NCBI GenBank assembly: GCA_963703025.1 | Contig: OY969778.1 | Span: 897,160-961,159, forward strand | From: an uncultured Pseudomonadota bacterium | GTDB taxonomy: Bacteria; Pseudomonadota; Gammaproteobacteria; Steroidobacterales; Steroidobacteraceae | Direction: 5' to 3' | DNA length: 64,000 bases | Shown here: positions 20,636 to 34,735 of the stretch, piece by piece | How the letters are laid out: each line of letters starts with the position of its first letter | How positions within the stretch are numbered: position 1 is the first letter of the stretch | Position numbers and translations under genes: made by a program | The notes under the pieces: generated by a model | Told to the model about the DNA's origin: nothing | Seen by the model: the letters and a program-made list of their open reading frames with translations, nothing else | Database searches by the model: none

Positions 20636-22126
20636 ATGGACATCAACGGCTCCCCCGAAAACTCCCCCGAACCACACATTCGCCACGCGCAGGCCTTGCA
20701 GGGCGCAGGACGCCTGGTCGAGGCGGAGCAGGCCTACACGCGAGTCCTGGCACGGTGGCCGGCGCTGCCAAACTGCTGGTTCAACTTAGGGGTGGTGCAG
20801 CGCCTGCAGGGCCGCGGCGAGGCAGCGCTCGCCTCGTACCGCGAGGCACTCAACCATGGCGTCTCGCGGCCCGAGGAGGTCCACCTCAACCGCGCCGTGA
20901 TACTCAACGACGTCCTGCAGCGCGCCGTCGAGGCCGAGGCTGAGCTGCGCGCCGCGCTGGCGCTGAACCCGACCTACCTGCCGGCGATGCTCAATCTTGC
21001 CAACCTGCACGAGGATCGCGGCGAGCGCGAGGCCGCCCGAGCGCTGTACGGCCAGATCCTGACGCTCAATCCCCTGGACTTCCTCGCCTTTGCGCGCCTA
21101 TCCAACCTGATGCCGCGCGGCTCGCACGATCCGCAGCTCATCGAGCGGCTGCGCGGCGCGCTCACCCGAGCCGAAGCCTCGGCGGCGGACCGCGCGCACG
21201 TGGGCTTTGCCCTGGGACGGGCGCTGGACGGGGTGAAGGACTACCCGGCGGCCTTTGCCGCCTACCAGGCGGCCAACGAGGCCAGCCGTGCCGGCACCGC
21301 GCTGCCGGTTCACTACGACCGCGCCGCGCACGAGCAGGTGGTCGATGAACTCATCGCAACCCCACTGCCTGCGCCGGTGGAGTCGGTGACCCCGTCGCGG
21401 CGACGGCCGGTCTTCATATGCGGGATGTACCGCTCCGGCTCGACCCTGACCGAGCACCTGCTGGCCGGACATCCCGAGGTCGGCGCGGGCGGGGAGCTGC
21501 CGCTGCTGTCACGCCTCATCAGCGATCAGCTGGTGCCCTTCCCGGCAGCCCTGGCACGCGCATCCGCGGCGCACCTGGCGCGCCTGGCCGCCAGCTACCG
21601 CGCGAGCATCGCCACCTTGTTCCCCTCGGCGGCCTTCGTGACCGACAAGCGTCCGGACAATTTCTTCTGCATCGGCCTGATCAAGACCCTCTTCCCGGAT
21701 GCCCGGATCGTGCACACGGTGCGCGATCCGCTGGACACCTGCCTCTCGGTGTACTTCCTGCACCTGGACCATCGCCTCAGCTACGCCCTTGATCTTTCTG
21801 ACATTGGCCACTTTTACCGCCAGTACCAGCGCCTGATGGCGCACTGGAAGCAGCTCTTCGGGACTTCGATCATCGACTTCGACTACGACCGGTTCGTGCA
21901 GTCCCCGGAGCCCACTGCCGCGCAGCTATTCGGCGCGCTCGGGATGACCTGGGATGCGAGTTTCCTGGACTTCCCGCGCACCGCACGCAGCGTGCGCACG
22001 GCCAGTGTCTGGCAGGTGCGTGAGCCGCTGTACCAGCATTCCTCGGGGCGGGCGCGGCACTACGCGCGCGAGCTGGGGGCCTTGCGCAGGGAACTCGGCC
22101 TGCCGCCTGCAGACGACACCGGCTGA
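20636..22126 (+). CDS. TPR-repeat protein with C-terminal PAPS-dependent sulfotransferase domain (paralog 1, 496 aa)
   Basis: N-terminal TPR-like repeats (AEQAYTRVLARWPALPNCWFNLGVV..., ALNPTYLPAMLNLANLHEDRGEREAARALYGQILTLNP). The C-domain has the 5'-phosphosulfate loop FICGMYRSGSTLTEHLL and the 3'-phosphate motif VRDPLDTCLSVYF. No signal peptide. Confidence 0.75.
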   Translation: MDINGSPENSPEPHIRHAQALQGAGRLVEAEQAYTRVLARWPALPNCWFNLGVVQRLQGRGEAALASYREALNHGVSRPEEVHLNRAVILNDVLQRAVEAEAELRAALALNPTYLPAMLNLANLHEDRGEREAARALYGQILTLNPLDFLAFARLSNLMPRGSHDPQLIERLRGALTRAEASAADRAHVGFALGRALDGVKDYPAAFAAYQAANEASRAGTALPVHYDRAAHEQVVDELIATPLPAPVESVTPSRRRPVFICGMYRSGSTLTEHLLAGHPEVGAGGELPLLSRLISDQLVPFPAALARASAAHLARLAASYRASIATLFPSAAFVTDKRPDNFFCIGLIKTLFPDARIVHTVRDPLDTCLSVYFLHLDHRLSYALDLSDIGHFYRQYQRLMAHWKQLFGTSIIDFDYDRFVQSPEPTAAQLFGALGMTWDASFLDFPRTARSVRTASVWQVREPLYQHSSGRARHYARELGALRRELGLPPADDTG

Positions 22127-22134
22127 GGGCTCCG

Positions 22135-22800
22135 GTGAGCGACTCGCCCGAGGTCGTGCCGGTCTTCGCCACACCCTTCGGTGTGGTCAGCCTGCCCGTG
22201 GCGCGGGAATCCAATGCGGCGCTGGCCGCGGTGTTCACCGCCCGCGCACTGCCCCCGGGGGAAGCCGCGACTGCAGGCGCGCACGCCAGCTTCTGCAGCC
22301 CAGAGGACCTGCTCGAGTGGCAAGACCCGGCCGTGGTGCAGCTCAGCCGCGAGATGCTGGCCGGCGTGAGCGCGTTTGCGACTTCGATCAGCGAACTGAC
22401 AACCGAGCAGTGGGCCAGCCTGCAGCTGCAGGCACGCGGCCGGTTCACGGTCATCGCCAACAATGGCTATGTCTCGCCCCACAGCCATCCGAACACCTCC
22501 TGGGTCGCCATCTACTGTGTCGCGGCGCCCCCGCCGTCGGCTATGCGGCATGACAGCGGCGTGCTGCGCCTGCACGAGTTCCGCCCGGGGGCGATGTTCG
22601 TGGACTCCGCCCACGGCACCGCGCGAATGCCCTACCGCCCAGGACACGTCATCTGGCGACCCGTTCCCGGCAAGATGGCGGTTTTTCCTGCCACGATCAC
22701 CCATGAAGTCGCACTTTTACGTGCAGAATCGCCCCTGATCCTGGTCACCCTGCGGATCCGGTTCGTGGGCGCAAACCAACCGTGGATGCCCCCGTGGTAG
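22135..22800 (+). CDS. 2OG-Fe(II)-oxygenase-like / cupin protein of an uncharacterised family (paralog A, 221 aa)
   Basis: GTG start 8 nt after the sulfotransferase stop. The motifs HSHPNTSWVAIYCV and MAVFPATITHEV match, from memory, the 2OG-FeII_Oxy_5 / TIGR02466-type pattern (HxHP..S..S..Y ... FPS...H.V). This needs HMM confirmation. Confidence 0.55.
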   Translation: MSDSPEVVPVFATPFGVVSLPVARESNAALAAVFTARALPPGEAATAGAHASFCSPEDLLEWQDPAVVQLSREMLAGVSAFATSISELTTEQWASLQLQARGRFTVIANNGYVSPHSHPNTSWVAIYCVAAPPPSAMRHDSGVLRLHEFRPGAMFVDSAHGTARMPYRPGHVIWRPVPGKMAVFPATITHEVALLRAESPLILVTLRIRFVGANQPWMPPW

Positions 22801-23447
22801 CCCCTGCCCTGACCCTCCACCCCCGCTTCGCGGTCCCGGTCGCCGAGGCACACCTTTCGCCCTGCGAGGCGCTCAACCACGAGCTTGAGGCACTCTTCCT
22901 GGCGCGGGAGACCGATGAGTACCGCAACCCGATGCCCAGCCACCGGCCCCAGCAGGAGCTGTTCGAGAGTCGCTTCAACCTGTTCCGCTGGCCTGAGGCA
23001 TGTATCCAGCAGCTGCGCGCCTTCGTTCTGGAGGGTGTCGCCCAGGCGGTGCTGCGCGCGACGGACCTGTCCGCGCAGGAACTGGGCCGCCTGCAGTTCC
23101 ACAATCACACCTGGTTCCATATCACCCGGCACGCGGGCTCCTTCGTGGCCCACAACCACCCGATGGCCTCCTGGTCAGCCGTGTACTGCGTGCGTGCCGG
23201 GGAGTCAGTCCCCGGCCAGCCCGACAGCGGCCTCCTGCGATTGCGTGACCCACGCAGCGGCGCCGCTGCGTACCAGGATCCGGCAAACGCGCGCCTGCAG
23301 GGGCAGTTTCAGCTGCGTCCGCTGGAGCTAAGACTCGTTCCAGGCCAGCTGGTGGTCTTCCCCTCGTACGTGTTTCACGAGGTTGCACCCTTTTTCGGCG
23401 GCGACCGCCGCATCACCGTGGCCACCAATTGCTGGTTTGCCCAATAG
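22782..23447 (+). CDS. 2OG-Fe(II)-oxygenase-like / cupin protein (paralog B, 221 aa)
   Basis: Overlaps paralog A by 19 nt. Its motifs HNHPMASWSAVYCV and LVVFPSYVFHEV sit at the same relative positions as in paralog A. It ends ...RITVATNCWF. Confidence 0.55.
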   Translation: MDAPVVAPALTLHPRFAVPVAEAHLSPCEALNHELEALFLARETDEYRNPMPSHRPQQELFESRFNLFRWPEACIQQLRAFVLEGVAQAVLRATDLSAQELGRLQFHNHTWFHITRHAGSFVAHNHPMASWSAVYCVRAGESVPGQPDSGLLRLRDPRSGAAAYQDPANARLQGQFQLRPLELRLVPGQLVVFPSYVFHEVAPFFGGDRRITVATNCWFAQ

Positions 23448-23578: not shown

Positions 23579-23671
23579 TTCCGCCATAGCCACCGCGAGC
23601 GCAACATTCCAGCAACTGCGCCGCTGTTGCACGTGCTTTTCACGGACCTTGGACCTTGGGGAGATAAACGA

Positions 23672-26600
23672 ATGACGAAGACTAATCGCGCTCTGCGAAA
23701 CGCCGTCCGATTTGCCCTGGCGACCGCTGCCAGCGCCTCGGCGCCGCTCGCGTTTGCGCAGACCGCACCGGCCGCCGCCTCGGGGCAGATTCAAGAGGTA
23801 GTCGTCACAGGCTCGCGCCTGATGCAGGCGCCGAACGATGTGTCGATCAGCCCGATCACCACCGTTACGCAGCAGGACATCCAGCAGACCGGCCTGATTC
23901 GTACCGAGGACATCCTCAACAACCTGCCGCAGGTCGCAGTGGAACAGGCTTCGGGCAACTCCATCAGCTCCGTCGGCGTCGCGACCGTCAGCCTGCGTGG
24001 CTTAGGTTCGCAGCGCACCCTGGCGCTGATCGATGGCCGCCGCATGAACCCCGGTGGTGCCGGTGGCGTGCCCGGTGGCAACGCCAGTGCCGCAGACATC
24101 AACCAGATCCCGTCGGAACTGATCGAGCGCGTTGACGTGCTCACCGGCGGCGCCTCGGCCGTGTACGGCGCTGACGCTGTGGCCGGTGTCGTGAACTTCG
24201 TCATGAACACCCACTTCGAGGGTGTGCAGGTCAGTGGTTCCTACAGCTTCAACAACCACCACAACGGCGACCAGACGTACCTGAACTACCTGTCCGAGTC
24301 GGGTAACCCGCTGCCCGCGAGCACGGTCAACACCGGCCAGAACCGCACCGGTTCGATCATCATGGGAGCGAACTTTGCCGACGGCCGCGGCAACGCCACC
24401 GCGTACGTGACCTACCTGAACAGCTCACCTGCGGTGGGCTACCAGTTCGACCACGCGGGCTGCACGCTCAATGGCAGTTCGTCCTCGCTGTCCGCCCCGC
24501 CCTTCTGCGGCGGCTCGTCAACCAGCGCCGGCGGTCGTTTCAAGCTGTTCGGCCTGAATGCTTCGGGCCATACCGTCACGCTGCTGAACAACACGGTTGA
24601 TCGCACCACGGGTGCCTTCCGCAACTACGACGCCGGGACGGACGCCTACAACTATGGTGCGCTCAGCTACTTCCAGCGCCAGGCCGAGCGCTGGACCGCC
24701 GGCGCGTTCCTGCATTACGACCTGAACGACCACGTCACGACGTACTCCGAGACCATGTACGCGTACAACACCAACACCGCGCAGTACGGGCCAAGCGGCG
24801 CGTTCGCTTACACCCCGGTCCCGACCAGCTGCGACAACCCGCTGCTGACCGCGCAGGAAGTGTCGACCATCTGTACCCCGGCGAACCTCGCCGCGAACCA
24901 GGCCCTCTTTGGTGGTACCGGCAACCAGTTCACCGAATACCTGGGCCGCCGCAACGTCGAAGGCGGCGGACGTCTGGACAACTACACGTCCAACTCCATC
25001 CGCCAGGTGGTTGGCATGAAGGGCCAGATCAACAGCGCCTGGAGCTACGACGCCTACGCCCAGCTTGGCATCACGACGTTCTCCGACTTCGAAGGCAACT
25101 TCCTGGGAACGCAGCAGATCGGCTACTCCCTGGATGTCATCAAGAATCCTGCCGTCGGCGGCGTCGTGGGCGTCCCGGTCGGTGCCCCGGTCTGCCGTTC
25201 GGCACTGCCCGGCGGCGCGCAGCCGACCTGCGTACCGTGGAACATCTGGCAGGCTGGCGGCGTCAGCGCCGCGGCCCTGAACTACCTGACGGTCCCGGCA
25301 AGCTACGGCTCGGATTCGAAGGAGTACATCGTGGATGCCTCGGCCACCGGCGACCTGGGCAAGTACGGGATCCAGCTGCCGACCGCGAACAGCGGCCTGA
25401 ACGTGAACGTCGGCACGGAGTACCGCCAGGAGAAGTTCGACTTCAGCCCCGATTACATCTTCGAGAATGGCTTCCAGGCCGGCGGCGCGCCGGCGGGCCC
25501 GATCAACGGCCAGTTCCACGTCTGGGAAGGCTTCACGGAAATGCGCCTGCCGTTGGTCGACGAGAAGCCGGGGATCTACCTGCTCTCGATGGACGCCGGC
25601 TACCGCTATTCCAGTTACACGGAAGGCTTCGACACCAACACCTACAAGTTCGGTGTTGAATATGCCCCGATCCGCTCACTGCGCCTGCGCACCGGCTACA
25701 ACCGCGCGGTCCGGGCGCCGAACCTGAACGAACTGTACCAACCGGCAGCGGTGGGTGCTGGCGGCACGGCCGACCCGTGCTGGGGCACGACCCCGATCTA
25801 TACCCAGGCGGAGTGCGCGCGCACCGGCGTGACCGCTTCGCAGTACGGTCACCTCGACGTCAACGGGGCCGCGCAGATCAACACCCAGGTCGGTGGTACT
25901 TCAAGTCTCACCCCGGAAACGGCAGACACCTTCACCATCGGTGGTGTGTGGCAGCCGGACTTCGTACCCGGGCTGAACGTGTCGATCGATGCCTTCGATA
26001 TCAAGATCAAGAACACGATCACCTCGCTGTCCTCGAACTCGATCATCGCCAACTGCGCAGTGAACGATGACCCGTTCTCGTGCGCATCGATCCATCGTGG
26101 CGCCAACGGCTCGCTGTGGTTCAACACCTCCGAGTACGTCTCGGCGCTGTACCAGAACATCGGCACCGTGCAGACCAAGGGTATCGACCTCACCTCCGGC
26201 TACCACGTCAACATGGGCCACATGGGCCGGTTGATGGTGAACCTCGTGGGCACGTACACCAACAGCTTCACGGTCAACCCGATCCCGGGTGTGAACTACG
26301 ACTGCGCGGGCTACTTCGGTTCGACCTGCGGCGCACCGTTGCCCAAGTGGCGTCATGTGCTGGGCACGACCTGGGGCACCCCCTGGGCGGGGCTGGACCT
26401 GACGTTGCGCTGGCGCTATCTCGGCACCTCGTCGGTCGACCGTTCGAGCTCGGATCCGTCGCTGGCTTCCCCGTACTACCCGTACACGGCGCACATCCCG
26501 GCGTACAACTACATCGACATCTCGGCCGCGATGCCACTGTTTGGCAACTTCGAGGCGCGTGTGGGTGTGAACAACATCGCCGACAAGAACCCGCCGTTGA

Positions 26601-26716
26601 TCCTGAACGGCACGTACTCGGATTGCCCGAATACGAGCTGCAACGACAACACGTGGGTGGGAACGTACGACACGCTCGGCCGGTACATCTACATGAACCT
26701 GACCGCGAAGTTCTAA
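23672..26716 (+). CDS. TonB-dependent outer-membrane receptor (about 1014 aa precursor)
   Basis: ATG 23672 is preceded by GGGGAG. Signal peptide MTKTNRALRNAVRFALATAASASAPLAFA-QT. TonB box/plug reads IQEVVVTGSRL...ISPITTVTQQDIQQTGLIRTEDILNNLPQV...VSLRGLG...TLALIDGRR. The long Gly/Asn/Tyr-rich barrel ends ...YIYMNLTAKF (terminal Phe). No N-terminal signalling (STN) extension. Confidence 0.92.
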   Translation: MTKTNRALRNAVRFALATAASASAPLAFAQTAPAAASGQIQEVVVTGSRLMQAPNDVSISPITTVTQQDIQQTGLIRTEDILNNLPQVAVEQASGNSISSVGVATVSLRGLGSQRTLALIDGRRMNPGGAGGVPGGNASAADINQIPSELIERVDVLTGGASAVYGADAVAGVVNFVMNTHFEGVQVSGSYSFNNHHNGDQTYLNYLSESGNPLPASTVNTGQNRTGSIIMGANFADGRGNATAYVTYLNSSPAVGYQFDHAGCTLNGSSSSLSAPPFCGGSSTSAGGRFKLFGLNASGHTVTLLNNTVDRTTGAFRNYDAGTDAYNYGALSYFQRQAERWTAGAFLHYDLNDHVTTYSETMYAYNTNTAQYGPSGAFAYTPVPTSCDNPLLTAQEVSTICTPANLAANQALFGGTGNQFTEYLGRRNVEGGGRLDNYTSNSIRQVVGMKGQINSAWSYDAYAQLGITTFSDFEGNFLGTQQIGYSLDVIKNPAVGGVVGVPVGAPVCRSALPGGAQPTCVPWNIWQAGGVSAAALNYLTVPASYGSDSKEYIVDASATGDLGKYGIQLPTANSGLNVNVGTEYRQEKFDFSPDYIFENGFQAGGAPAGPINGQFHVWEGFTEMRLPLVDEKPGIYLLSMDAGYRYSSYTEGFDTNTYKFGVEYAPIRSLRLRTGYNRAVRAPNLNELYQPAAVGAGGTADPCWGTTPIYTQAECARTGVTASQYGHLDVNGAAQINTQVGGTSSLTPETADTFTIGGVWQPDFVPGLNVSIDAFDIKIKNTITSLSSNSIIANCAVNDDPFSCASIHRGANGSLWFNTSEYVSALYQNIGTVQTKGIDLTSGYHVNMGHMGRLMVNLVGTYTNSFTVNPIPGVNYDCAGYFGSTCGAPLPKWRHVLGTTWGTPWAGLDLTLRWRYLGTSSVDRSSSDPSLASPYYPYTAHIPAYNYIDISAAMPLFGNFEARVGVNNIADKNPPLILNGTYSDCPNTSCNDNTWVGTYDTLGRYIYMNLTAKF

Positions 26717-26750: not shown

Positions 26751-26778
26751 ACGGCGGGCCTCGGCCCGCCGTTTTTTT
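26751..26778 (+). terminator. Rho-independent terminator after the receptor gene
   Basis: ACGGCGGGCC tc GGCCCGCCGT followed by TTTTTTT, 35 nt after the stop codon. Confidence 0.85.
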
Positions 26779-26840: not shown

Positions 26841-28448
26841 ATGCCACGTGACCTAAAGGCGGACCAGGAGTTGCTCGGCAAGGTCCTGGCGCATGCGCAG
26901 AACCGCGACATACACCGGGCCGCCGTGCTCGCCGAACAGGCCCTTGCTGAGGGCTTCGAGCATCCGCTGCTGCTGAACATCGCAGCCACGCGGCTGGAGC
27001 AGGAGGGCAGGCTGCAGGAAGCACTGGGCCTGCTGGAGCGCGGGGTCGCGCTGGCACCGGCGGACGTACCGGTACGCAACGCGCTGGCGTTGTGCCTGCA
27101 GCGGCTGGACCGGCCGCAGGAGGCCCTGACCCACCTGGAGCTGATACTCAAGGAGCACCCCAAGCTCAGCTTCGCCCACGCCAGCAAGGGCAACGCGCTC
27201 ATCGCCCTGGGCTCACTCGGGCTCGCACAGGCCAGCCACCTGCGGGCGCTGGAGCTGGACGCGGACAACATTGCGGCGATGGGCTCGCTTGCCTCGATCG
27301 CCACCCACCGCGGTGACCACGCCGGCGCGCGGCGCTGGGCGGAACGGCTTCTCGCGCGCATGCCGGGCTTTCCCGATGCGGTGCTCAGTCTCGCGGCGGC
27401 CGACCTGGCCGGCGGCGCCACGGCGCGGGCGGAGGCGGCTCTGCGCGCCCTGCTGGCCGACCCGCGTGCGGGGGCGACCGACCGGGCGCGGGCCTTGGGA
27501 CAGCTGGGCGACGTGCTCGATGCCACCGGGCGCTACGCGGAAGCCTTCGAGGCTTACGCATCAGGCAACGAGCTGACGCGGCAGGCGCAGCGCCGGTTCG
27601 CAGAACCGAGCCTGCTCAGCTACACCCATGCACTCTCGGCCACCTTCAGCGCGCTCGCGCCGCGCTGGCCGCGCAGCGCCGCGGCGCAGCCGGTCGCGGG
27701 CGGCCCCGCGGGGCACGTCCTGCTGATGGGGTTCCCGCGCTCGGGCACCACGCTGCTCGAGGCAGTCCTCGACGGGCACCCGCAGGTGGTGAGTCTTGAG
27801 GAGCACGACCTGTTCACCGAGGGGGTGCTGCGCTTCCTGGGCGACCCGCACACGCTTGATGCGCTGGCGGGTGCCGATGAGGCCCAGCTGGCACCGCTGC
27901 GTGCGGCGTACTGGGCCCGGGCGCGCGCTGGCGGCGCCGACCTCGACGGCAAGGTGTTCGTGGACAAGCACCCGCTCAACACACTGAAGCTGCCCCTGGT
28001 CGCGCGACTGTTCCCCGAGGCCAAGATCCTGTTCATACGCCGCGACCCGCGCGACGTCGTGTTCAGCTGCTTCCGGCGCCGCTTCAGAATGAACCCGGCC
28101 ATGTACCAGATGCTGACGCTCGACAGCGCGGCGCGGTTTTACGATGCGGTCATGGACTTCGCCGCGCGCGTGCAGCCGGTGCTTGGCCTGCCGTGGCTGG
28201 ACGTGCGCTACGAGGGGCTGATGGGGGAGTTCGCCGCACAGACACAGCGCATCTGTGCATTCCTCGGCCTTGAATGGACCGCCGGCATGGGCGAGTTCGC
28301 AAGCCGCGTCCAGTCGCGCGAGAGTGCCACCCCGAGCACCGCGCAGCTGGCGCGCGGCCTGGACCCTTCAGGGATCGGTCACTGGCGGCATTACGCGGGC
28401 GAGCTTGCACCGGTGCAGGCGGTGCTGGAGCGCTGGATCAGCCAGTAG
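26841..28448 (+). CDS. TPR-repeat protein with C-terminal sulfotransferase domain (paralog 2, 535 aa)
   Basis: TPR-like N-half (LEQEGRLQEALGLLERGVALAPADVPVRNALALCLQRLDRPQEAL...). Sulfotransferase motifs are VLLMGFPRSGTTLLEAVL and FIRRDPRDVVFSCF. No signal peptide. Confidence 0.75.
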   Translation: MPRDLKADQELLGKVLAHAQNRDIHRAAVLAEQALAEGFEHPLLLNIAATRLEQEGRLQEALGLLERGVALAPADVPVRNALALCLQRLDRPQEALTHLELILKEHPKLSFAHASKGNALIALGSLGLAQASHLRALELDADNIAAMGSLASIATHRGDHAGARRWAERLLARMPGFPDAVLSLAAADLAGGATARAEAALRALLADPRAGATDRARALGQLGDVLDATGRYAEAFEAYASGNELTRQAQRRFAEPSLLSYTHALSATFSALAPRWPRSAAAQPVAGGPAGHVLLMGFPRSGTTLLEAVLDGHPQVVSLEEHDLFTEGVLRFLGDPHTLDALAGADEAQLAPLRAAYWARARAGGADLDGKVFVDKHPLNTLKLPLVARLFPEAKILFIRRDPRDVVFSCFRRRFRMNPAMYQMLTLDSAARFYDAVMDFAARVQPVLGLPWLDVRYEGLMGEFAAQTQRICAFLGLEWTAGMGEFASRVQSRESATPSTAQLARGLDPSGIGHWRHYAGELAPVQAVLERWISQ

Positions 28449-28479: not shown

Positions 28480-29001
28480 TCACTTGGCGCGCTGCGCCCG
28501 GTACGTGTGGTGCGTGGACGTGGTGATGAGGTAGGAACCCAGCGCGGCGCGCTTGATGGTCACTTCGCTGCCGGTCGGCGGCGGCCCGCCGGCGTCCAGG
28601 TACGTCCAGGTCTGGCCATTGTCGAGGCTCACGAAGTTGTTGCCCTGGCGATCAGCACTGGCTGCCACCACATGGGCCGTGATGGCCTGGGTACTTAGCT
28701 CGGTAGGGGCCACGTGCGTGCTCATCCCGAAGCCACCGGCCGCCGCGACCGGTGCGGCTGCCCCTGCGGACCCGGTGGCGCCGGCAGCAGGCGCGCCAGC
28801 GACCGCGGCAGCAGGCGCAGCCGGCGGCGGCATCTTGGCCACCGCGAGCGTGTCGTAGCAGGCCAGACGCTGATCGACAGCGATGATCGCCGCACAGTGC
28901 GCAAGCTCGCTGACGCTCACCGTCGGTGCCGCCGCCGCGGCGGCACCGGCAAGCCCCAGCCCCGCCAGCATGGCCGAGCACACCGTGGCCACCGGGCTCA
29001 C
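28480..29001 (-). CDS. Small exported protein of unknown function (173 aa) with Cys pair, Ala/Pro-rich linker and beta-rich C-terminal domain
   Basis: The GTG start overlaps the stop of the upstream hydroxylase gene (GTGA). The hydrophobic N-terminus MSPVATVCSAMLAGLGLAGAAAAAA-P is signal-peptide-like but lacks a basic n-region. It continues HCAAIIAVDQRLACYD, then the linker PPPAAPAAAVAGAPAAGATGSAGAAAPVAAAGG, then ...FVSLDNGQTWTYLD...VTIKRAALGSYLITT. Confidence 0.6.
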   Translation of the reverse strand: MSPVATVCSAMLAGLGLAGAAAAAAPTVSVSELAHCAAIIAVDQRLACYDTLAVAKMPPPAAPAAAVAGAPAAGATGSAGAAAPVAAAGGFGMSTHVAPTELSTQAITAHVVAASADRQGNNFVSLDNGQTWTYLDAGGPPPTGSEVTIKRAALGSYLITTSTHHTYRAQRAK

Positions 29002-30305
29002 AGCGCCTTCTCGCCCGGCTGGGCGTAGTGGCTGCCGTAGACCTGCGTCGCGGCCGCGATCATCTCGCGCTCCACGGCGGTCAACAGCGGGTTCCAGATG
29101 TCGAAGATCAGGATGGCGCGCGGGGTGTCAGAGTTGTTCCAGGCCTCGTGCTCGATGGTGTCGTCGAACACCCATGCCTTGCCCGGCACCCACTCGCGGG
29201 TGGTCCCGCCGACGCGGAAGCCGCAGCCGGGCGGCACGATGAGCGGCAGGTGCACCGTCAGCCGCGTATTGGTGACGCCGGTGTGCGGCGGGATGCGCGT
29301 GTTGGCATCGAGGATGGAGAAGAAAGCCGTCGGGGCGCGGGCGGCCACCTGGGGCCGCGGCACCTCCGCCAGCGCCCGCTCGGTGGCCGGGCACCGCGCG
29401 ATGTGTCCGGCATCCGGCACGCTCTGGTTCCACAAGAAGTACGCGCTCCAGCTGCGCGAACGGTTCAGCGCGCGGAACTGGTCGAGCGGCATGTCGGGGG
29501 GGAAGTCGATGTATGGCTGCAACCCGTCGCGATCGGCCACGAGCACGCGCAGCAGCTCAGCGCGGATCTGGTCGCTGGCCCCCTCCAGTGCCTCCAGCCA
29601 CGGGAAGTCCGTACGCTCGAAGAACTCGATCGCCGGCAGCTCCGGGAAGTACATCCACGTGGGCTGCGAATGGTAGATGCTGCGCCGGCCCATGAGCGCC
29701 TCGATGCACGCATCGACCCGCCGCTGCGCCCCCGCGCCGTGGCGCTCGCGGATTGCCGCCAGCGGCGCTTCCAGCTGCGTGGTGAGGAGGGCCAGATCCT
29801 TGTCGACCAACAGCTGTGCGCGGCGCAGCGCCTCGCGCAGGTGCGCCGGTGGTTCGGTGCCCGGCCGCACGCAGGCCAGCGCGCTCTGGTAGGCGCGCGC
29901 AGCACCGCGCAGCTCCCCTGCATCCTCAAGGTGCGCGCCCTTCTGCAGCAGCGCCGACAGGTGGCGTGGTTCCAGTTCGAGGGCGGTCTGGATCGCGTCC
30001 ATCTCCTCAGCGGAGCGCCCGAGCGCCTTCAGGCTGCTGGCCAGGTTCGCCCACAGCGAGGGGTGCTTCGGGTCGACCTTCGTGGCGCGCTCGAACAGTG
30101 CGCGTGCCTGCTCGGCATTGCGGCGGTCGAGCATGCGCACGCCCAGCTCGTTGAGCACTGCGGGGTGGTTGGGCGCGCGCTGCGCGAGCGCCACCAGGAT
30201 CTGGTCAGATTCGCCGGCACGTCCGGCGACGGCGGCAGCCTTGGCGGACTGCAGGGTGCGGATGACTGCGGCGTCGTCGAGGTCAGCGGGCACTGAGGCA
30301 TTCAA
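28998..30305 (-). CDS. TPR-repeat protein with C-terminal aspartyl/asparaginyl beta-hydroxylase-family (Fe/2OG) domain (435 aa)
   Basis: N-terminal TPR-like repeats (NHPAVLNELGVRMLDRRNAEQARALFERATKVDPKHPSLWANLASSLKALGR...). The C-domain reads RIPPHTGVTNTRLTVHLPLIVP and KAWVFDDTIEHEAWNNSD, the two signature blocks of the Asp_Arg_Hydrox family. The start is TTG 30305 (GTG 30293 is an alternative). No signal peptide or TM segment. Confidence 0.72.
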   Translation of the reverse strand: MNASVPADLDDAAVIRTLQSAKAAAVAGRAGESDQILVALAQRAPNHPAVLNELGVRMLDRRNAEQARALFERATKVDPKHPSLWANLASSLKALGRSAEEMDAIQTALELEPRHLSALLQKGAHLEDAGELRGAARAYQSALACVRPGTEPPAHLREALRRAQLLVDKDLALLTTQLEAPLAAIRERHGAGAQRRVDACIEALMGRRSIYHSQPTWMYFPELPAIEFFERTDFPWLEALEGASDQIRAELLRVLVADRDGLQPYIDFPPDMPLDQFRALNRSRSWSAYFLWNQSVPDAGHIARCPATERALAEVPRPQVAARAPTAFFSILDANTRIPPHTGVTNTRLTVHLPLIVPPGCGFRVGGTTREWVPGKAWVFDDTIEHEAWNNSDTPRAILIFDIWNPLLTAVEREMIAAATQVYGSHYAQPGEKAL

Positions 30306-30366: not shown

Positions 30367-30393
30367 GCGCCGCCGCGCAGGTGGCGGCCACAA

Positions 30394-30422
30394 TTGACTC
30401 CCCCGGCGGACTCGGCTTATAT
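30394..30422 (+). promoter_or_regulatory. Probable sigma-70 promoter of the third sulfotransferase operon
   Basis: TTGACT (30394-30399), a 17-nt spacer, then TTATAT (30417-30422). The TTG of this -35 hexamer is what the ORF track uses as the start codon of ORF 30394-32523. Confidence 0.5.
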
Positions 30423-30519
30423 ACCGCCGCCGTCCCAGGGGACGAGCACGGCACCGGGGCGCCAGAACAGGCTCCTGCCGCCGGCACTAACGTGCCACTG
30501 CACTCCCGGAGTCGCCATC

Positions 30520-32523
30520 TTGAGCACCGCTTCCGCCGACCTGGAACTCATGCGTGCCTCGCTGCTGCTTGAGTCGGACCCGCCGGCGGCAGCGCGACGT
30601 GCGAGCGAAATTCTCGCCCAGTTCCCCGGGCACGCCGAGGCCAGCCTGCTGCTGGCCACCGCCTGCCGCAACCTCGGCGAGCCGGCGACCGCGGCAAGCG
30701 TGCTGGAGGGGCTCGTGGCGGGCAATGCCGAGTCGCCGTCGATCCTGCTGGAACTCGGGCGTGCCTACGCCGCCGCCGGACGCTCGGCCGAGGCCATCGC
30801 AGTCATGCAGCGAGCGGTCGCCGCGGATCCGCAGTTCGCCGATGGCTGGCAGCACCTGGCCGCGCAGTACTTCGTGGCCGGGGACACCCTCGCCGGTGAC
30901 GATGCCTACGAGCGCTACACGCTCCTGTGGCGCCGGCCCCAGGAACTGGCCGATGCGATGCGCGCGCTTGCCGACAACCGTGTTGAGGCCGCGGAACAGA
31001 TCCTGCAACGGCGCCTGCAGCACACCCCGCACGATGTCGCCGCGCTGCGGCTATTGACCGAGGTGGCGCTACGGCGCGAAGACGACCTGCAGGCTGAGCG
31101 CTCACTCGGGCAGTGCCTCGCGCTTGCGCCAGGCTACGCGGCAGCGCGCTACGACCTGGCGCGGCTGCTGTATTCCCAGCAGCGCATCGCGGAGATGCTG
31201 GTGCAGCTGGCGCGCCTGCTCGCCGCGCAGCCGCGTAACCTCAACTACCTGGGCCTGAAGGCCCACGGCCTGCGCATACTGGGCAACAACGACGCGGCAA
31301 TGAAGCTCGTCCAGGAGTTGATCGCCGAGTATCCGCTCGAGGAGCAGGTGTGGATACTGTATGGCACCGTGCTGCGCGAGGTCGGTGAGCAGCCGCGCGC
31401 GATCGAGGCGTTCCGGCAGGCGCTCATCGTGCGCCCCGGCTCATCCAGCGCGTACGCAAGTCTTGCCAACCTCAAGACCTTCCGCTTCAGCACCGAGGAG
31501 CTCACGGCCATGCGCGAGCAGCTGGCGCTCGACAGCGTGCGCGGCGCCGATCGCGTCCAGCTCGAATTCGCCCTGGGCGCCGCATTCGAGCACCGCCACG
31601 AGTTTGCGCAGTCCTTCGAACACTATGCGCGCGGCAACAGCCTGCATCGCTCCACCCTGTTCTACGACCCGGGGTTCGTGACCGAACGGGTGCAGCGCAC
31701 GCGCGCGTTGTTCAACGCGCAGTTCTTCGCAGAGCGGCAGGGGTGGGGCAGCCAGCAGACCGACCCGATCTTCATCGTCGGCATGCCGCGCTCCGGCTCG
31801 ACGCTGCTCGAACAGATGCTCGCCTGCCACTCGCAGGCGGAGGGCACGCGCGAGCTTCCGGATTTGCCGATGCTGGCGCTGGAGCTCCTGGCAAACGTGG
31901 CCGAGCCGACACAGGCGTCGCTGTTCGAGAAGTTTGACGCGTTGCGCCCCGAGGAGGTGGCAACCCTGGCCGCCCGCTACCTCCAGAGCACCCGCGGGCA
32001 CCGGCACCTCGGCAAGGCGCGCTTCGTCGACAAGCTGCCCGGCAACTGGTCACTGCTGGGCTTCGCGATGCTGCTGTTCCCGCGCGCGTCGATCATCGAC
32101 GCGCGCCGCCACCCGCTCGCCAGCGGCTTCTCCTGCTACAAGCAGCTGTTCAGCCGCGGCCAGCAATTTACCTACGACCTGCGCGAGGTCGGGCTCTTCG
32201 CACGCGACTACACCACGCTCATGCAGCACTTCGATGACATCCTCCCCGGGCGGGTCCACCGCGTGCACTACGAACACCTGATCAGCGACCCTGAAGCTGA
32301 GCTGCGCAGGCTCCTGGAATACTGCGGCCTGCCCTTCGAGGAGCAGTGCCTGCGCTTCCACGAGAACCGGCGCGCCGTATCGACCTTAAGTTCCGAGCAG
32401 GTGCGCCAGCCGCTCTACTCGGAGAGCGTGGATCACTGGCGCAACTACGAACCGTGGCTGGGTCCGCTGAAGGACGCGCTGGGCGGCCTTGTTGCGCAGT
32501 ACCCGCAGGTCCCGAAGCCCTGA
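30520..32523 (+). CDS. TPR-repeat protein with C-terminal sulfotransferase domain (paralog 3, about 667 aa)
   Basis: The start is taken at TTG 30520 (GGAG 8 nt upstream); in-frame ATG 30550 is an alternative. It has a long TPR array (ILLELGRAYAAAGRSAEAIAVMQRAVAADPQFADGWQHLAAQYF...). Sulfotransferase motifs are IFIVGMPRSGSTLLEQML and IIDARRHPLASGFSCY. Confidence 0.75.
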   Translation: MSTASADLELMRASLLLESDPPAAARRASEILAQFPGHAEASLLLATACRNLGEPATAASVLEGLVAGNAESPSILLELGRAYAAAGRSAEAIAVMQRAVAADPQFADGWQHLAAQYFVAGDTLAGDDAYERYTLLWRRPQELADAMRALADNRVEAAEQILQRRLQHTPHDVAALRLLTEVALRREDDLQAERSLGQCLALAPGYAAARYDLARLLYSQQRIAEMLVQLARLLAAQPRNLNYLGLKAHGLRILGNNDAAMKLVQELIAEYPLEEQVWILYGTVLREVGEQPRAIEAFRQALIVRPGSSSAYASLANLKTFRFSTEELTAMREQLALDSVRGADRVQLEFALGAAFEHRHEFAQSFEHYARGNSLHRSTLFYDPGFVTERVQRTRALFNAQFFAERQGWGSQQTDPIFIVGMPRSGSTLLEQMLACHSQAEGTRELPDLPMLALELLANVAEPTQASLFEKFDALRPEEVATLAARYLQSTRGHRHLGKARFVDKLPGNWSLLGFAMLLFPRASIIDARRHPLASGFSCYKQLFSRGQQFTYDLREVGLFARDYTTLMQHFDDILPGRVHRVHYEHLISDPEAELRRLLEYCGLPFEEQCLRFHENRRAVSTLSSEQVRQPLYSESVDHWRNYEPWLGPLKDALGGLVAQYPQVPKP

Positions 32524-32533
32524 TGGGCCGCGC

Positions 32534-34735
32534 ATGAGCGAAACCCAGTTCAAGCTCGCGCAGGCGCTCGCGCTGTACCAGCAGCGACGGGTGCCCGAGG
32601 CCGTGGCCCTCTACCGCGAAGTGCTGATGGTCGAGCCGCGCAATGTCGATGCCCTGCACCTGTGCGGACTCGCCCTGGCAAGCCTGGGGGACTTCCAGCG
32701 CTCCCCGATCCTCCTGGACGCGGCCGCGCAGATCGCCCCGGGCAGTGCCATGATCCAGGCGAATCTTGCCGCCGCGCTGAGCGGCGCCGGCCGCGCCGAG
32801 GAGGCGCTTGCCGCCTACGAGCGGGCGCTGGCAATCGAACCCCAGCTGCCGGCAGCGGTGCGCGGGCGGGCCATGGCGCTCATGCATCTCAATCGGCATG
32901 AGGAAGCCGTCGCGGGGTTCCGCGAGGCCCTGAGGATTGCACCGAATGACGACCACGCCGGCAACGGCCTGGGCGTGGTGCTCGAGCAGATGGGCCGCGC
33001 GGACGAGGCGCGCGAACAATTCGCGCGCGCCCTCCTGCTGAACCCGGCAAACGCCGAGGCGCACCATAACCTTGGGCTGCTCGAGGCGACCGCGGGACGG
33101 CATGCCGAGGCGCTCGCGAGCATCGAGCGTGCCCTGGCCTTGCAGCCGCGGCAGCCGATCCTGCACCTCAACCACGGGGTCCAGCTGCTCGCCCTCAGGC
33201 GGCCCGAGGAGGCCGTACGCAGCTTCGACCGCGCGCTTGCGCTGCAGCCGCGCGACGCGCTCACGCATCACAACCGCGGCCTCGCCCTGTTCGCCCTCGG
33301 GCGCCACGAGGAGTCACTCGCAAGCTTCGATCGCGCGCTCGAAGCAGCCCCCGATCATGCCGCACGACAGCTGTGGCGCGGCAAGACACTGCTGGAGCTC
33401 GGGCGACCGGCCGAGGCACTCGCCGCCTTCGAGATTGCGCGCCAGTGCGCGCCGGGGGAATTCGAGGTGCACATGCACTGCGGCGGCGCGCTCACGCTGC
33501 TGGAGCGCCACGAGGAGTCGCTCGCAAGCTTCGATCGCGCGCTCGCCCTCGAGGCGAACTCACCTGAGGCCGCCAACAACCGCGGTGCGGTGCTGGTGCG
33601 CCTGTTCCGGCCCTCCGAGGCGCTCGAGGAATTCGCGCGTGCGCTGGCCCTGCGCCCGGACTTCGCTGACGCCCTGATCAACACTGGCAATGTGCTGCGC
33701 GGGCTTGGCAGGTTCGACGAGGCGCATCTGCCGCTGCAAAGGGCACGCGAGCTGCGACCGCAGGATGCGAACGTTCGCTGGAGCCAAGCTTTGCTGAGTC
33801 TTTCGCAGGGTGACTTCCGCACGGGCCTGCCGCTGTACGAGGCGCGGCTGGAGCTGCCCCCGGCGAGCCAACTGCAGCATCCTGACGTGCCGCGCTGGAA
33901 TGGCGCTGGATCAATCGCCGGGCGGAGGCTCTATGTGTACGCCGACCAGGGATTGGGCGACACGCTGCAGTTCTGCCGCTACATACCGGTGCTCGAGGGA
34001 CTCGGGGCGCAGGTGATCTTCGCCGTCCAGCCGGTACTGGTACAGCTGCTGCAGTCGCTGCCGATGCGCGGACAGCTGATCGCGCGCGGCGAGCCGGCAC
34101 CCGGGGCTGAACTCTCCGTGCCGCTGGCGAGCGTGCCGCTGGCGCTGGGCACCGAGATCGCAACGATCCCGGGGGGCGTGCCCTACCTGCGCGCGGAGCC
34201 CAAGTCAGCGATCACCTGGGCCGGCCGGCTCGCGGCATTGCCCGGCGTCAAGGTGGGACTCAACTGGCACGGCAACCCGGCCGCGGAGAAATTCGCGGCC
34301 CTGCAGGCCCGCTCGTTCCCGCTGGCGGCCGCGGCGCCGCTGGCGCAAGTCAAGGGTGTCAGCCTGGTCTCGCTCCAGAAGGGTGACGGCGCGCAGCAGC
34401 GCGAGCGCGTGAGCTTTGCTGACGCGCTCGCGCAGCTTACCGAGCCGTCACACATGGGAGCCGCGGAACTTGCGACCGAGACTGCCGCGCTGATCGAGGG
34501 TCTGGACCTGGTCATCACCGCGGACACCGCGCTCGCCCACCTCGCCGGGGCCCTGGGCGTGCCGGTCTGGGTCATGCTGCAGCACATCCCTGACTGGCGC
34601 TGGCTCACCGACCGGTCAGACAGCCCGTGGTATCCCACCATGCGGCTGTTCCGCCAGAGTGCGGCGGGGAACTGGGACGAGTTGTTCGAGCGCGTCGCCA
34701 GCGAGCTGTCCGCCCTGGTGCGCGCACGTGCCTGA
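32534..34735 (+). CDS. TPR-repeat protein with C-terminal GT9-like (heptosyltransferase-fold) glycosyltransferase domain (about 733 aa)
   Basis: ATG 32534 lies 10 nt after the preceding stop. About 12 TPR units are present (AVALYREVLMVEPRNVDALHLCGLAL..., repeated A..fdRALAlqP pattern). The C-domain reads RRLYVYADQGLGDTLQFCRYIPVL...VGLNWHGNP...LVITADTALAHLAGALGVPVWVML...WYPTMRLFRQ, as in GT9-type enzymes. The domain call is from motif recall only. Confidence 0.6.
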   Translation: MSETQFKLAQALALYQQRRVPEAVALYREVLMVEPRNVDALHLCGLALASLGDFQRSPILLDAAAQIAPGSAMIQANLAAALSGAGRAEEALAAYERALAIEPQLPAAVRGRAMALMHLNRHEEAVAGFREALRIAPNDDHAGNGLGVVLEQMGRADEAREQFARALLLNPANAEAHHNLGLLEATAGRHAEALASIERALALQPRQPILHLNHGVQLLALRRPEEAVRSFDRALALQPRDALTHHNRGLALFALGRHEESLASFDRALEAAPDHAARQLWRGKTLLELGRPAEALAAFEIARQCAPGEFEVHMHCGGALTLLERHEESLASFDRALALEANSPEAANNRGAVLVRLFRPSEALEEFARALALRPDFADALINTGNVLRGLGRFDEAHLPLQRARELRPQDANVRWSQALLSLSQGDFRTGLPLYEARLELPPASQLQHPDVPRWNGAGSIAGRRLYVYADQGLGDTLQFCRYIPVLEGLGAQVIFAVQPVLVQLLQSLPMRGQLIARGEPAPGAELSVPLASVPLALGTEIATIPGGVPYLRAEPKSAITWAGRLAALPGVKVGLNWHGNPAAEKFAALQARSFPLAAAAPLAQVKGVSLVSLQKGDGAQQRERVSFADALAQLTEPSHMGAAELATETAALIEGLDLVITADTALAHLAGALGVPVWVMLQHIPDWRWLTDRSDSPWYPTMRLFRQSAAGNWDELFERVASELSALVRARA

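Follow-up and report, generated by a model that had tools for sequence, protein, structure and literature searches.

The window analysed here, i.e. the whole stretch of 64,000 nucleotides, carries a cluster in which genes for an outer-membrane TonB-dependent receptor and a small exported protein stand together with those for TPR-fused hydroxylases and sulfotransferases of the cytoplasm. The cluster is real, uncharacterised and strongly conserved among soil Steroidobacteraceae. The first-pass annotation had counted nine intact genes in this block; all nine open reading frames were found and every one of the domain assignments made there was backed by Pfam HMM searches. The borders given for it, pgl (19810-20481) and zwf, do flank the block, although zwf bears a 1-nt frameshift. 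The locus sits amid housekeeping genes. Its features are:

20636..22126, plus strand: ST1, TPR-fused PAPS-type sulfotransferase (Pfam Sulfotransfer_3 E 2.6e-37, plus TPR)
22135..22800, plus strand: Ox1, 2OG-FeII_Oxy_5-like paralogue (Pfam E 3.6e-7, 30.9 bits versus a cut-off of 27)
22782..23447, plus strand: Ox2, 2OG-FeII_Oxy_5/TIGR02466-like oxygenase (Pfam E 1.6e-14)
23672..26716, plus strand: TonB-dependent receptor, 1014 aa from the ATG (Plug and barrel in Pfam)
26751..26772, plus strand: intrinsic-terminator-like hairpin 3' of the receptor gene (9-bp stem with 8 GC pairs, then a T run; consensus match only)
26841..28448, plus strand: ST2, TPR-fused sulfotransferase (Sulfotransfer_3 E 1.4e-34)
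28480..29001, minus strand: small exported protein with a VasI-type N-terminal Cys hairpin motif (no Pfam match; signal-like N-terminus)
28998..30305, minus strand: TPR-AspH, TPR-fused Asp/Asn beta-hydroxylase-family oxygenase (Asp_Arg_Hydrox, PF05118, E 4e-42)
30394..32523, plus strand: ST3, TPR-fused sulfotransferase, divergent from AspH (Sulfotransfer_3 E 4.3e-47)
32534..34735, plus strand: TPR-fused GT9-like glycosyltransferase, TPR-GT (ATG 32534 inside the ORF 32489-34735; strong TPR match)

The start of ST3 is ambiguous (TTG 30394 or ATG ~30550). The receptor ORF spans 23627-26716, the ATG at 23672 being the likely true start; a separate gene call on L001 likewise yields a receptor of 1014 aa. 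None of the seven enzymes shows a 19-residue hydropathy window reaching the threshold of 1.6, i.e. a signal or transmembrane segment, in agreement with the earlier claim that they lack signal peptides, and all of them are predicted to be soluble and cytoplasmic. The block had also been described as devoid of a regulator, an exporter and an obvious precursor-peptide gene; neither of the first two, nor any conserved hidden small ORF, was detected in it. No EGF domain was noted by Pfam among the proteins of the locus, and T6SS genes were seen neither in the block nor among the genes recurring near the related clusters.

Concerning the TPR-AspH, its best PDB match by both sequence and fold is human ASPH. 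The oxygenase domains match at E 2.6e-27 and the top 10 Foldseek matches are all human ASPH TPR-plus-oxygenase constructs, the structure model being of moderate quality (pLDDT 69) and the TM values in the fold comparison reaching only 0.28-0.31. In both proteins the PF05118 oxygenase domain comes after a TPR domain, and both have the two-His iron site HxG...H as well as WxFDD..EHE.W; HxG and IEHEAWN are conserved in the orthologues. Human ASPH is a type II membrane protein of the endoplasmic reticulum acting on disulfide-bonded EGF domains, whereas the TPR-AspH is predicted to be soluble and cytoplasmic.

The three sulfotransferases retain the PAPS motifs quoted in the first-pass annotation, both here and in their orthologues: in ST1, neither the loop Arg nor the Glu at position +21 varies among 56 orthologues, and PR[ST]GTT and E320/E321 are conserved in ST2. 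ST3 finds its top PDB match in the CurM sulfotransferase (1e-10) and also matches protein-tyrosine sulfotransferases (E 3e-8 to 4e-4). His-rich metal motifs had been attributed to all three oxygenase-type proteins, which is true of the TPR-AspH and of Ox2, where HNHP...FHEV and R210-I-T show little or no variation across 60-61 orthologues, but not of Ox1 in general. The latter, sharing 30% identity with Ox2, has HSH as the proximal His motif in this stretch, replaced by TSY, ASY, ANY or similar in most orthologues, and lacks the H-x10-R-x-T motif; judging from these residues, it is probably non-catalytic in most species. The nearest solved structure to Ox2 is 3BVC (E 3.9e-4), of unknown function. 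The TPR-GT matches Glyco_transf_9 with 23.5 bits (cut-off 22) over 31 residues and TIGR02193 at E 3.5e-4, with no PDB match by sequence or profile.

The receptor possesses seven conserved Cys pairs, and its likeness to solved receptors is limited to the plug. One of its loops, CAVNDDPFSC, resembles the AspH consensus, the loop interior not being conserved. The small protein had been noted as coupled to AspH; the coupling stands, the two reading frames overlapping by 4 nt at the AspH stop, but that description missed that the protein is conserved as a partner and carries a VasI-type motif near its N-terminus. It follows AspH directly in 70 of 80 loci, and the pair is also present in Polymorphobacter and S. 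gossypii. Behind its hydrophobic, signal-like N-terminus, C36, R45, C48 and D50 never vary; Phe replaces Tyr49 in 8 of 62 orthologues, and there is no conservation of the Asp within the Cys loop. With the VasI/VC_A0118 family (PF11319, type VI secretion loci) it shares the N-terminal C-x8-RLxCYD hairpin motif, and 30 of 31 homologues match PF11319 weakly through that motif only, their best matches, where shown, running from the profile start to positions 22-70 of 184; the protein of the window itself gives no match at E up to 1, i.e. under the gathering score. In the AF2 model a disordered Pro/Ala linker connects a helix hairpin to a C-terminal beta domain predicted with confidence; no PDB fold match was obtained for the protein, this domain included.

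Relatives of the TPR-AspH were found in 212 loci in GTDB species genomes. The first-pass annotation had pointed to Xanthomonadales, Caulobacterales and Sphingomonadales; the actual lineage is Steroidobacteraceae, within the Gammaproteobacteria, and in 80 related genomes the genes lie together. Presence was counted in the 48 related species-level genomes where the flanks of the TPR-AspH gene extend over the full 10 kb: 47 carry ST3 and 47 the receptor, 44 have Ox2, 43 the small exported protein, 40 ST1, 39 ST2 and 37 Ox1. ST3 and the receptor form the conserved core together with the TPR-AspH and its VasI-like exported partner. The glycosyltransferase, carried by only 11 of the 48, is accessory, and the pgl/zwf flanks are likewise kept in only 11. 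The divergent ST3/AspH pair occurs in 73 of 80 loci, yet at least 12 distinct gene orders were counted, so the set is held together by selection rather than by inertia. Five MAGs contain two paralogous clusters each and, in the four cases where no contig end truncates the second cluster, both copies come with a receptor of their own. Seven related Steroidobacteraceae clusters include an extra 2OG-FeII_Oxy_3 gene, read from its sequence as PiuC-like. Genes for inner-membrane transport, export or scaffold synthesis do not recur across the related clusters.

In six of eight lineages outside this family, no more than 3.3 kb separates a TPR-AspH gene from a receptor gene, among them Polymorphobacter, Pseudoalteromonas (two species) and the cultured Steroidobacter gossypii; the metagenome contig L098 also has a receptor close to TPR-AspH. 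In the two Pseudoalteromonas species, whose loci lack the VasI-like protein, the 2OG-FeII_Oxy_5 protein is itself TPR-fused, and, separately, in Pseudoalteromonas Bsw20308 a receptor is followed by a TPR-sulfotransferase. The metagenomic protein P0351 (910 aa) unites TPR-AspH, TPR and Sulfotransfer_3 in a single chain, encoded 87 bp downstream of a receptor gene. Two small exported Cys-pair proteins of 83 aa are found beside the cluster in L093.

No paper describing this cluster was found in the literature, nor any characterised pathway matching it, and the known systems resemble it in part. In Escherichia coli, the receptor gene fiu is paired with the adjacent Fe(II)/2OG oxygenase gene ybiX. 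In Pseudomonas aeruginosa, the receptor gene piuA adjoins the Fe/2OG oxygenase gene piuC, and piuC mutations impair uptake and expression that depend on piuA (PMC11878004). As in the cluster, a cytoplasmic oxygenase is thus encoded beside a TonB-dependent receptor, but PiuC is a single PKHD-type domain without TPR, and both pairs lack the sulfotransferases, the AspH-family enzyme and the VasI-like partner. RaxST of Xanthomonas oryzae, a PAPS sulfotransferase related to eukaryotic protein-tyrosine sulfotransferases—a likeness shared by the sulfotransferase domains of the cluster—modifies the ribosomal peptide RaxX in the cytoplasm before export; its locus, however, also encodes the precursor and type I secretion, both lacking in the cluster, and RaxST has no TPR and no receptor or hydroxylase partners. 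The TibC/Aah heptosyltransferases (GT9-like) and HMW1C glycosylate outer-membrane adhesins in the cytoplasm before Sec export, and are a precedent for cytoplasmic modification of outer-membrane-bound proteins, although without TPR fusion and with autotransporter substrates, the TPR-GT of the cluster being accessory with a weak GT9 match. VasI, for its part, differs from the small protein, whose C-terminal domain has no known fold match and which has no T6SS genes seen nearby.

Since the synteny is shuffled yet retained, the linkage recurs across orders and an AspH-sulfotransferase fusion exists in nature beside a receptor, hydroxylase, sulfotransferase and receptor appear functionally tied. 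Our leading, still tentative reading (probability about 0.4) is that cytoplasmic TPR-guided enzymes modify a receptor-tied protein or peptide; the likeliest targets would be exported proteins of the locus itself, modified while still in the cytoplasm. The nine genes would form one functional unit, a receptor-linked modification module, in which a human-ASPH-like TPR hydroxylase, the Ox2/Ox1 pair and the three PAPS sulfotransferases, joined in some species by a GT9-like glycosyltransferase, act on a common protein or peptide substrate brought in by the TPR arrays for hydroxylation and sulfation. The likeliest substrates would be the Sec-exported VasI-like protein and/or the receptor, and the modified product would act together with the receptor at the outer membrane. 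The protein nature of the substrate, its identity, the timing before export and the import cargo of the receptor are what we infer. Modification of a protein is supported by the matches of the sulfotransferases to protein-tyrosine sulfotransferases and of AspH to human ASPH, with invariant catalytic residues. Also in favour of the reading are the retention of the set under rearrangement, the paralogous clusters with receptors of their own, the natural fusion, the receptor linkage in distant lineages, the coupling of AspH to the small protein, enzymes without signal or transmembrane segments, the absence of any recurring transporter, exporter or scaffold-synthesis gene, and the precedent of piuC and piuA. 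The dedicated receptor-tied system proposed in the first-pass annotation is partly supported, glycosylation being only accessory and Ox1 probably non-catalytic in most species.

Several points count against this reading. TPR arrays are also found in polysaccharide-handling enzymes and scaffolds and are thus no proof of a protein substrate; the domains hydroxylated by human ASPH are folded and disulfide-bonded, and such substrates would not be available in the cytoplasm. LpxO and OlsC, lipid hydroxylases, are the best NCBIfam matches of the AspH domain, although far under the cut-offs. The conserved N-terminal motif of the small protein is the part matching the Pfam VasI model and need not, therefore, mark a modification site; Tyr49 varies, and neither the Cys-loop Asp nor the CAVNDDPFSC interior is conserved. 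The absence of the VasI-like protein from Pseudoalteromonas and the moderate AspH model are further points.

An unlikely, though best-surviving, alternative is that the enzymes tailor a secreted ligand—a peptide-derived metallophore or signal—by hydroxylation, sulfation and sometimes glycosylation, its scaffold being encoded elsewhere or being the small exported protein, and the receptor retrieving the loaded ligand as in siderophore loci. Ligand-biosynthesis loci commonly contain receptor genes, beta-hydroxy-Asp and sulfate groups are good cation ligands, all the enzymes present are of the tailoring type, and small exported Cys-pair proteins recur beside the clusters (VasI-like; the two 83-aa ones in L093). 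No NRPS, NIS, RiPP core enzyme, precursor peptide or exporter was found, however, in or recurring near the clusters, nor any periplasmic binding protein or ABC importer, and with the VasI-like protein as scaffold this alternative would merge into the protein-modification reading. Somewhat less likely still, the receptor could bring in a peptide or scarce substrate that the cytoplasmic enzymes modify for use, detoxification or signalling. The nearest plasmid-borne receptor homologues, from Sphingomonas, lie within hydroxyproline and peptide catabolism loci and hint at a peptide-importing subfamily, but their 33-37% identity does not fix substrate specificity, no inner-membrane transporter occurs in any cluster examined, and sulfotransferases and TPR fusions are atypical of catabolism, hydrolases and sulfatases being absent.

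It is improbable that the target is a lipid of the outer membrane required by the receptor, remodelled by a hydroxylase of the LpxO/OlsC kind, LPS-type sulfotransferases and an enzyme resembling GT9 heptosyltransferases. To our knowledge, the characterised bacterial PF05118 enzymes, LpxO and OlsC, hydroxylate lipids; they are the top NCBIfam matches of the AspH domain (OlsC 8.8e-27, LpxO 1.5e-13), CurM works on acyl-ACP and GT9 enzymes on the LPS core. The AspH domain nevertheless scores far under the equivalog cut-offs (94 versus 450 bits for OlsC, 50 versus 500 bits for LpxO), its TPR-then-oxygenase layout is that of human ASPH, LpxO and OlsC being membrane-associated and without TPR, the cluster enzymes have no membrane segments, the glycosyltransferase is accessory and no lipid or LPS genes recur nearby. 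That the genes are mere neighbours through descent or chance is very improbable, despite the housekeeping surroundings, related genomes probably rich in receptor genes and TPR-AspH homologues without a nearby receptor in L094 and Niveispirillum (nearest 9 kb off), given that the same set survives many rearrangements and relocations, that whole clusters are duplicated, that a gene fusion exists and that the linkage recurs in other orders and another class. The cluster is a promising entry point to a bacterial modification pathway not yet described.

The stretch between pgl and zwf (20636-34735), in a window of ~69% GC, is filled by nine ORFs with little intergenic space, and the cluster they form has been confirmed as real, conserved and uncharacterised. 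It encodes three TPR-fused sulfotransferases (ST1, ST2 and ST3), two tandem 2OG-FeII_Oxy_5 paralogues (Ox1 and Ox2), a TonB-dependent receptor, a TPR-fused Asp/Asn beta-hydroxylase-family protein (TPR-AspH; 28998-30305, minus strand), a small VasI-like exported protein (28480-29001, minus strand) and a TPR-fused GT9-like glycosyltransferase (GT). The domains named for these products in the first-pass annotation have each been recovered by Pfam, the GT match being marginal, and NCBIfam assigns none of the nine to a named equivalog. The PAPS motifs quoted there were found in all three sulfotransferases, the seven enzymes are devoid of any hydrophobic segment suggestive of a signal peptide or a transmembrane helix, and no hidden precursor-peptide ORF was found, the intergenic regions carrying no conserved small ORF and only the ST3 N-terminus being conserved there. 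The block and its domains stand as originally described, whereas the reading of them as a modification system is supported in part and has been refined. A strong terminator-like hairpin is located 3' of the receptor gene; neither Rfam elements, riboswitches included, nor sigma-70-like promoters were found in the block.

It should be pointed out here that several housekeeping genes of the window look fused or broken, a pattern pointing to frequent indel errors such as those of a long-read MAG, so that care is needed with the precise limits of genes in the window.

Features of the window relating to gene boundaries
12800-13179, plus strand: bacterial RNase P RNA class A (316.8 bits)
16881-18607, minus strand: cytochrome b and Rieske fragments, looking broken
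34790-36956: zwf, split over two frames, with a frameshift near 35745
42490-44295, plus strand: RpoN and ribosome hibernation factor, looking fused
48074-51111, minus strand: penicillin amidase, split in two, looking broken
53443-56874, minus strand: transketolase, GAPDH and the PGK N-terminus in one 1143-aa ORF, looking fused

The zwf frameshift apparently consists of one extra C after ...CTGCATGCAGCA, and either the assembly has an indel there or the gene is a pseudogene; the long zwf ORF additionally holds a 6-phosphogluconate dehydrogenase fragment. Since the RNase P RNA overlaps the 3' end of the minus-strand amidohydrolase ORF (12937-14682), the real ORF is shorter.

Homologues of TPR-AspH with 61-83% identity occur at 212 loci in GTDB species-representative genomes, the best 80 of which are titled Steroidobacteraceae/Steroidobacterales or bear broader labels only, e.g. 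Gammaproteobacteria. The window proteins were mapped onto these best 80 loci, all from close relatives, and presence was counted at the 48 with full 10 kb flanks.

Presence of the cluster components and flanks at the 48 loci
ST3: 47/48
Receptor: 47/48
Ox2: 44/48
Small VasI-like protein: 43/48
ST1: 40/48
ST2: 39/48
Ox1: 37/48
GT: 11/48
pgl/zwf flanks: 11/48

The gene order adopts at least 12 layouts among the best 80 of the 212 loci, 73 of which have ST3 divergent from TPR-AspH and 70 have TPR-AspH followed by the small protein; Ox1 beside Ox2 and ST1 beside Ox1 are the other persistent sub-modules. Two paralogous clusters are present in five MAGs, each copy having its own receptor in the four pairs not cut by a contig end. 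An extra 2OG-FeII_Oxy_3 gene, whose product is read as PKHD/PiuC-like, adjoins cluster genes at seven loci (L081, 16850-17512; also L079, L077, L078, L071, L073 and L057), at five of which it is flanked by two of them. Two exported proteins, one unnamed, Cys-containing and ~200 aa long and the other a DUF192 protein, are encoded as a pair that adjoins the cluster or lies within ~2 kb of it at 23-26 of the 80 loci (e.g. L013, 11672-12787, and L071, 3469-4553); the pair is present in Steroidobacter gossypii (L096, 6669-7999), too, and absent from the 64 kb window.

Concerning the sulfotransferases, ST1, ST2 and ST3 match Sulfotransfer_3 with 129.6, 120.7 and 161.6 bits, respectively (Pfam cut-off 27), and each contains the 5'-phosphosulfate loop (xRSGxTL) and the 3'-phosphate motif (R-[DH]-P...S), the latter being kept in the orthologues, as defined by the best tblastn match. 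In ST1 (56 orthologues) and ST2 (59 orthologues), neither the loop Arg nor the Glu at +21 varies; the 82 orthologues of ST3 all keep the Arg, and 81 of them keep the Glu. We take this Glu to occupy the position of the TPST/CurM catalytic base, and the two residues to be equivalent to Arg78 and Glu99 of TPST2. Among solved structures, the sulfotransferase domain comes closest to the CurM sulfotransferase (1e-10) and to protein-tyrosine sulfotransferases (3e-8 to 4e-4), and the trio is predicted to represent PAPS-dependent sulfotransferases of the Sulfotransfer_3 (TPST/CurM-like) family. The plasmid-borne TPR-sulfotransferases of Novosphingobium and Hirschia have no adjoining receptor, and a 700-aa homologue from the Ralstonia solanacearum megaplasmid (L090), also with no receptor nearby, is located ~2 kb from cysC (adenylyl-sulfate kinase), a proximity consistent with PAPS use by this family; the receptor linkage of TPR-sulfotransferases is thus not universal.

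TPR-AspH matches PF05118 with 144.2 bits (cut-off 22.6) and retains HxG...H and WVFDDTIEHEAWN, the iron ligands being conserved among 82 homologues within [PA]H[TV]G and IEHEAWN. Its TPR is N-terminal to the oxygenase (Pfam), in the order known from human ASPH, the oxygenase domain of which is its best match (E 2.6e-27). When its AF2 model was submitted to Foldseek, the top 10 PDB entries were all human ASPH TPR-plus-oxygenase constructs (~470 columns, E ~5e-13); since the model is a moderate one (pLDDT 69) and the TM-scores against these constructs are low (0.28-0.31), the likeness established is that of the linear architecture only and does not extend to relative domain packing. With regard to the ASPH substrate consensus C-x-[DN]-x4-[FY]-x-C, the sole candidate noticed on reading through the proteins of the locus was the receptor loop CAVNDDPFSC, the interior of which is not conserved; the Cys loop of the small protein, with its other spacing and variable Asp, was rejected as an EGF-like substrate of the ASPH type.

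The two 2OG-FeII_Oxy_5 paralogues share 30% identity; both exceed the Pfam cut-off of 27 (Ox1 30.9 and Ox2 54.6 bits) and fall below that of 62.5 for TIGR02466 in NCBIfam (33.2 and 43.7 bits, respectively). In Ox2, HNHP, H199 (HNHP...FHEV) and R210-x-T are invariant or nearly so among the orthologues, the R-I-T eleven residues past the distal His being invariant. Most Ox1 orthologues have lost the proximal His pair, and the R-x-T is missing; Ox1 is probably a non-catalytic partner. As for the GT, whose GT-B fold is putative, its C-terminus exceeds the Glyco_transf_9 cut-off of 22 by a narrow margin (23.5 bits, 31 residues only); the motifs GLGD and DT-x2-AHLA are invariant in its 15 orthologues, and PDB gave no match either by sequence or by a 15-sequence profile.

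The receptor, with an Ala-rich, signal-like N-terminus, matches Plug with 80.6 and the barrel with 117.3 bits (Pfam) and is predicted to be a plug-plus-22-strand-barrel TonB-dependent receptor. A TonB-dependent transducer was rejected, the protein having no N-terminal signalling extension and the block no ECF sigma/anti-sigma genes. A CUT/PUL-like carbohydrate locus was rejected as well: glycoside hydrolases, an inner-membrane transporter and a regulator are absent from the block and none of them recurs in the related clusters, nor does an exporter, a PAPS-synthesis gene or a scaffold synthetase. The nearest plasmid-borne homologues of the receptor (33-37% identity), from the Sphingomonas plasmids L088 and L089, are found in hydroxyproline and peptide catabolism loci, both with a 4-hydroxyproline epimerase, a DHDPS-like gene, an FAD oxidoreductase, an amino-acid permease and an M20 peptidase, and L089 with a Xaa-Pro peptidase; these hints suggest that the receptor subfamily may import peptides.

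The small protein, a 173-aa ORF without a Pfam match, starts with an overlap of 4 nt over the TPR-AspH stop and, unlike the seven enzymes, has a hydrophobic signal-like segment. It is conserved and consists of four parts, the first one being the signal peptide. C36, R45, L46, C48 and D50 are invariant in its helical hairpin, where Y49 is also found; further on, an FG motif comes after a disordered Pro/Ala linker, and there is a predicted beta domain with LDNGQxW, modelled confidently. The fold has no significant match in PDB (best E 0.047). VasI (PF11319) is matched weakly by 30 of 31 homologues, mainly through the N-terminal motif corresponding to the profile start; identity with VasI was rejected, the window protein giving no match at E up to 1 and no T6SS genes being seen nearby. 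Some orthologues carry tandem copies of C-x8-RLACYD and pass the Pfam VasI threshold because of this duplicated hairpin motif.

Orthologues with tandem C-x8-RLACYD copies
L006, 10222-10740
L011, 11308-11859
Proteins P0148, P0149, P0171, P0177, P0186 and P0204

As potential modification sites, Asp43 of the loop varies and Tyr49 is not invariant, 8 of the 62 locus-derived orthologues having Phe instead; the C36/R45/C48/D50 motif is the part matched by the Pfam VasI model, and therefore no site can be assigned in the small protein.

In a whole-library search, 581 clusters (50% identity) proved to be related to TPR-AspH at E <=1e-30; the TPR-oxygenase from Pseudoalteromonas used as a query gave 12 matches only, the search being swamped by TPR words. 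The wider distribution was followed in eight hand-checked contexts.

Gene contexts in other lineages
Polymorphobacter megasporae (Sphingomonadales): receptor divergent from VasI-like protein, then TPR-AspH; no sulfotransferases
Pseudoalteromonas piscicida and a second Pseudoalteromonas species: receptor, TPR-fused 2OG-FeII_Oxy_5, TPR-AspH
Pseudoalteromonas Bsw20308: receptor, TPR-sulfotransferase
Steroidobacter gossypii S1-65 (cultured; L096, TPR-AspH WP_203165487.1), one strand: unnamed exported protein, DUF192, TPR-AspH, TPR-2OG-FeII_Oxy_5
Steroidobacter gossypii, opposite strand: VasI-like protein, a hydrolase, receptor
Metagenome contig L098: receptor ~1.1 kb from TPR-AspH
Metagenome contig L093: receptor, 910-aa fusion protein P0351
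L093, 4760-5270, minus strand: two tandem 83-aa exported paralogues, just downstream of the fusion gene

A receptor lies within 3.3 kb of TPR-AspH in 6 of the 8 independent hand-checked contexts, an anecdotal yet consistent pattern, and the link of receptor and hydroxylase is encountered again in other orders, and also in Alphaproteobacteria. P. piscicida carries the receptor-hydroxylase operon only, and no sulfotransferase was seen in the 17 kb examined around the reduced cluster of S. gossypii. In P0351 (L093, 2027-4759), TPR-AspH, a second TPR and Sulfotransfer_3 are naturally fused, with a receptor gene 87 bp upstream; its relatives P0260, P0285 and P0315 each contain TPR-AspH twice in tandem, and the 83-aa paralogues share the Cys-pair motif DPNRVICR...GSRL...C.T..EW. 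Two TPR-AspH homologues, from L094 and from Niveispirillum (beside cobalamin genes), have no receptor nearby. The latter (L083, 8180-16149, the Niveispirillum cyanobacteriorum megaplasmid) is a stand-alone protein with 46% identity which, judging from ORF translations, appears to end a run of cobalamin salvage/biosynthesis and ABC-transport genes; a receptor-like fragment is located ~9 kb upstream.

Overall, one process appears to comprise the hydroxylase as well as the sulfotransferases and the receptor. The favoured substrate is a protein or a peptide, on four grounds: the TPR arrays of five of the enzymes, the likeness of the sulfotransferase domains to protein-tyrosine sulfotransferases, the parallel between TPR-AspH and human ASPH, and the TPR fusion of the second oxygenase type in other lineages. 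The recurrent non-enzyme genes encode exported proteins only, without inner-membrane transporter or scaffold genes, so that the simplest model is one in which cytoplasmic enzymes would modify the co-encoded exported proteins ahead of Sec export. TibC/Aah and HMW1C are precedents for cytoplasmic modification before Sec export.

Several points count against this pre-export modification. TPRs are not exclusive to protein substrates, the VasI-like protein is absent from the Pseudoalteromonas loci, and no conserved modification site is assignable in the receptor loop or the small protein. Two rival readings are biosynthesis of a ligand for the receptor and processing of an imported compound. A third rival, envelope-lipid decoration, draws on the characterised bacterial PF05118 enzymes being, to our knowledge, lipid hydroxylases; the LpxO/OlsC identity was, however, rejected for TPR-AspH, which scores 93.9 bits vs 450 for OlsC and 50.5 vs 500 for LpxO (NCBIfam). 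The weakest proposal, that the genes share no function, sits poorly with a set retained despite relocation, rearrangement and duplication, which argues for selection on it as a unit.

A bolder elaboration of pre-export modification, which we consider rather unlikely in its full form, is a multi-step envelope-protein maturation pathway, in which TPR-guided cytoplasmic enzymes would add beta-hydroxyl and sulfate groups, sometimes also sugar, to the receptor and/or its VasI-like partner before Sec export, giving a charged surface that would bind cations or a ligand and be required for uptake. Were this true, it would provide the first example of an outer-membrane transporter system decorated post-translationally, along with a new and large family of bacterial enzymes that sulfate proteins or hydroxylate them at Asp/Asn, and oxygenases of the PiuC/YbiX type, encoded beside receptors, might find their explanation, too.

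The enzymes belong to known families, and for the gene set we could find no match among characterised systems in the literature on the set or its families. The RaxST/RaxX peptide sulfation relies on an adjacent precursor gene and a type I secretion/peptidase transporter, neither of which is in the cluster, and the defining features of CUT/PUL loci, TonB-dependent transducers, LpxO/OlsC and VasI/T6SS are each lacking. We know of no bacterial protein sulfation other than that by RaxST/RaxX and of no bacterial ASPH-type enzyme with a known protein substrate. The nearest concept is a receptor with an adjacent oxygenase, of which the cluster is a much elaborated variant; as the piuC-piuA pair illustrates, an Fe/2OG oxygenase encoded beside a receptor can be of consequence for how the latter functions (PMC11878004). 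Here, three orthologous TPR-sulfotransferases, an ASPH-like TPR hydroxylase, a second oxygenase type and a receptor are held together across an abundant soil lineage. With S. gossypii and P. piscicida as cultured hosts, mass spectrometry of the two named candidate substrates is feasible, and the cluster could clarify the receptor-adjacent Fe/2OG oxygenase genes and their effect on the uptake of siderophore-conjugated antibiotics.
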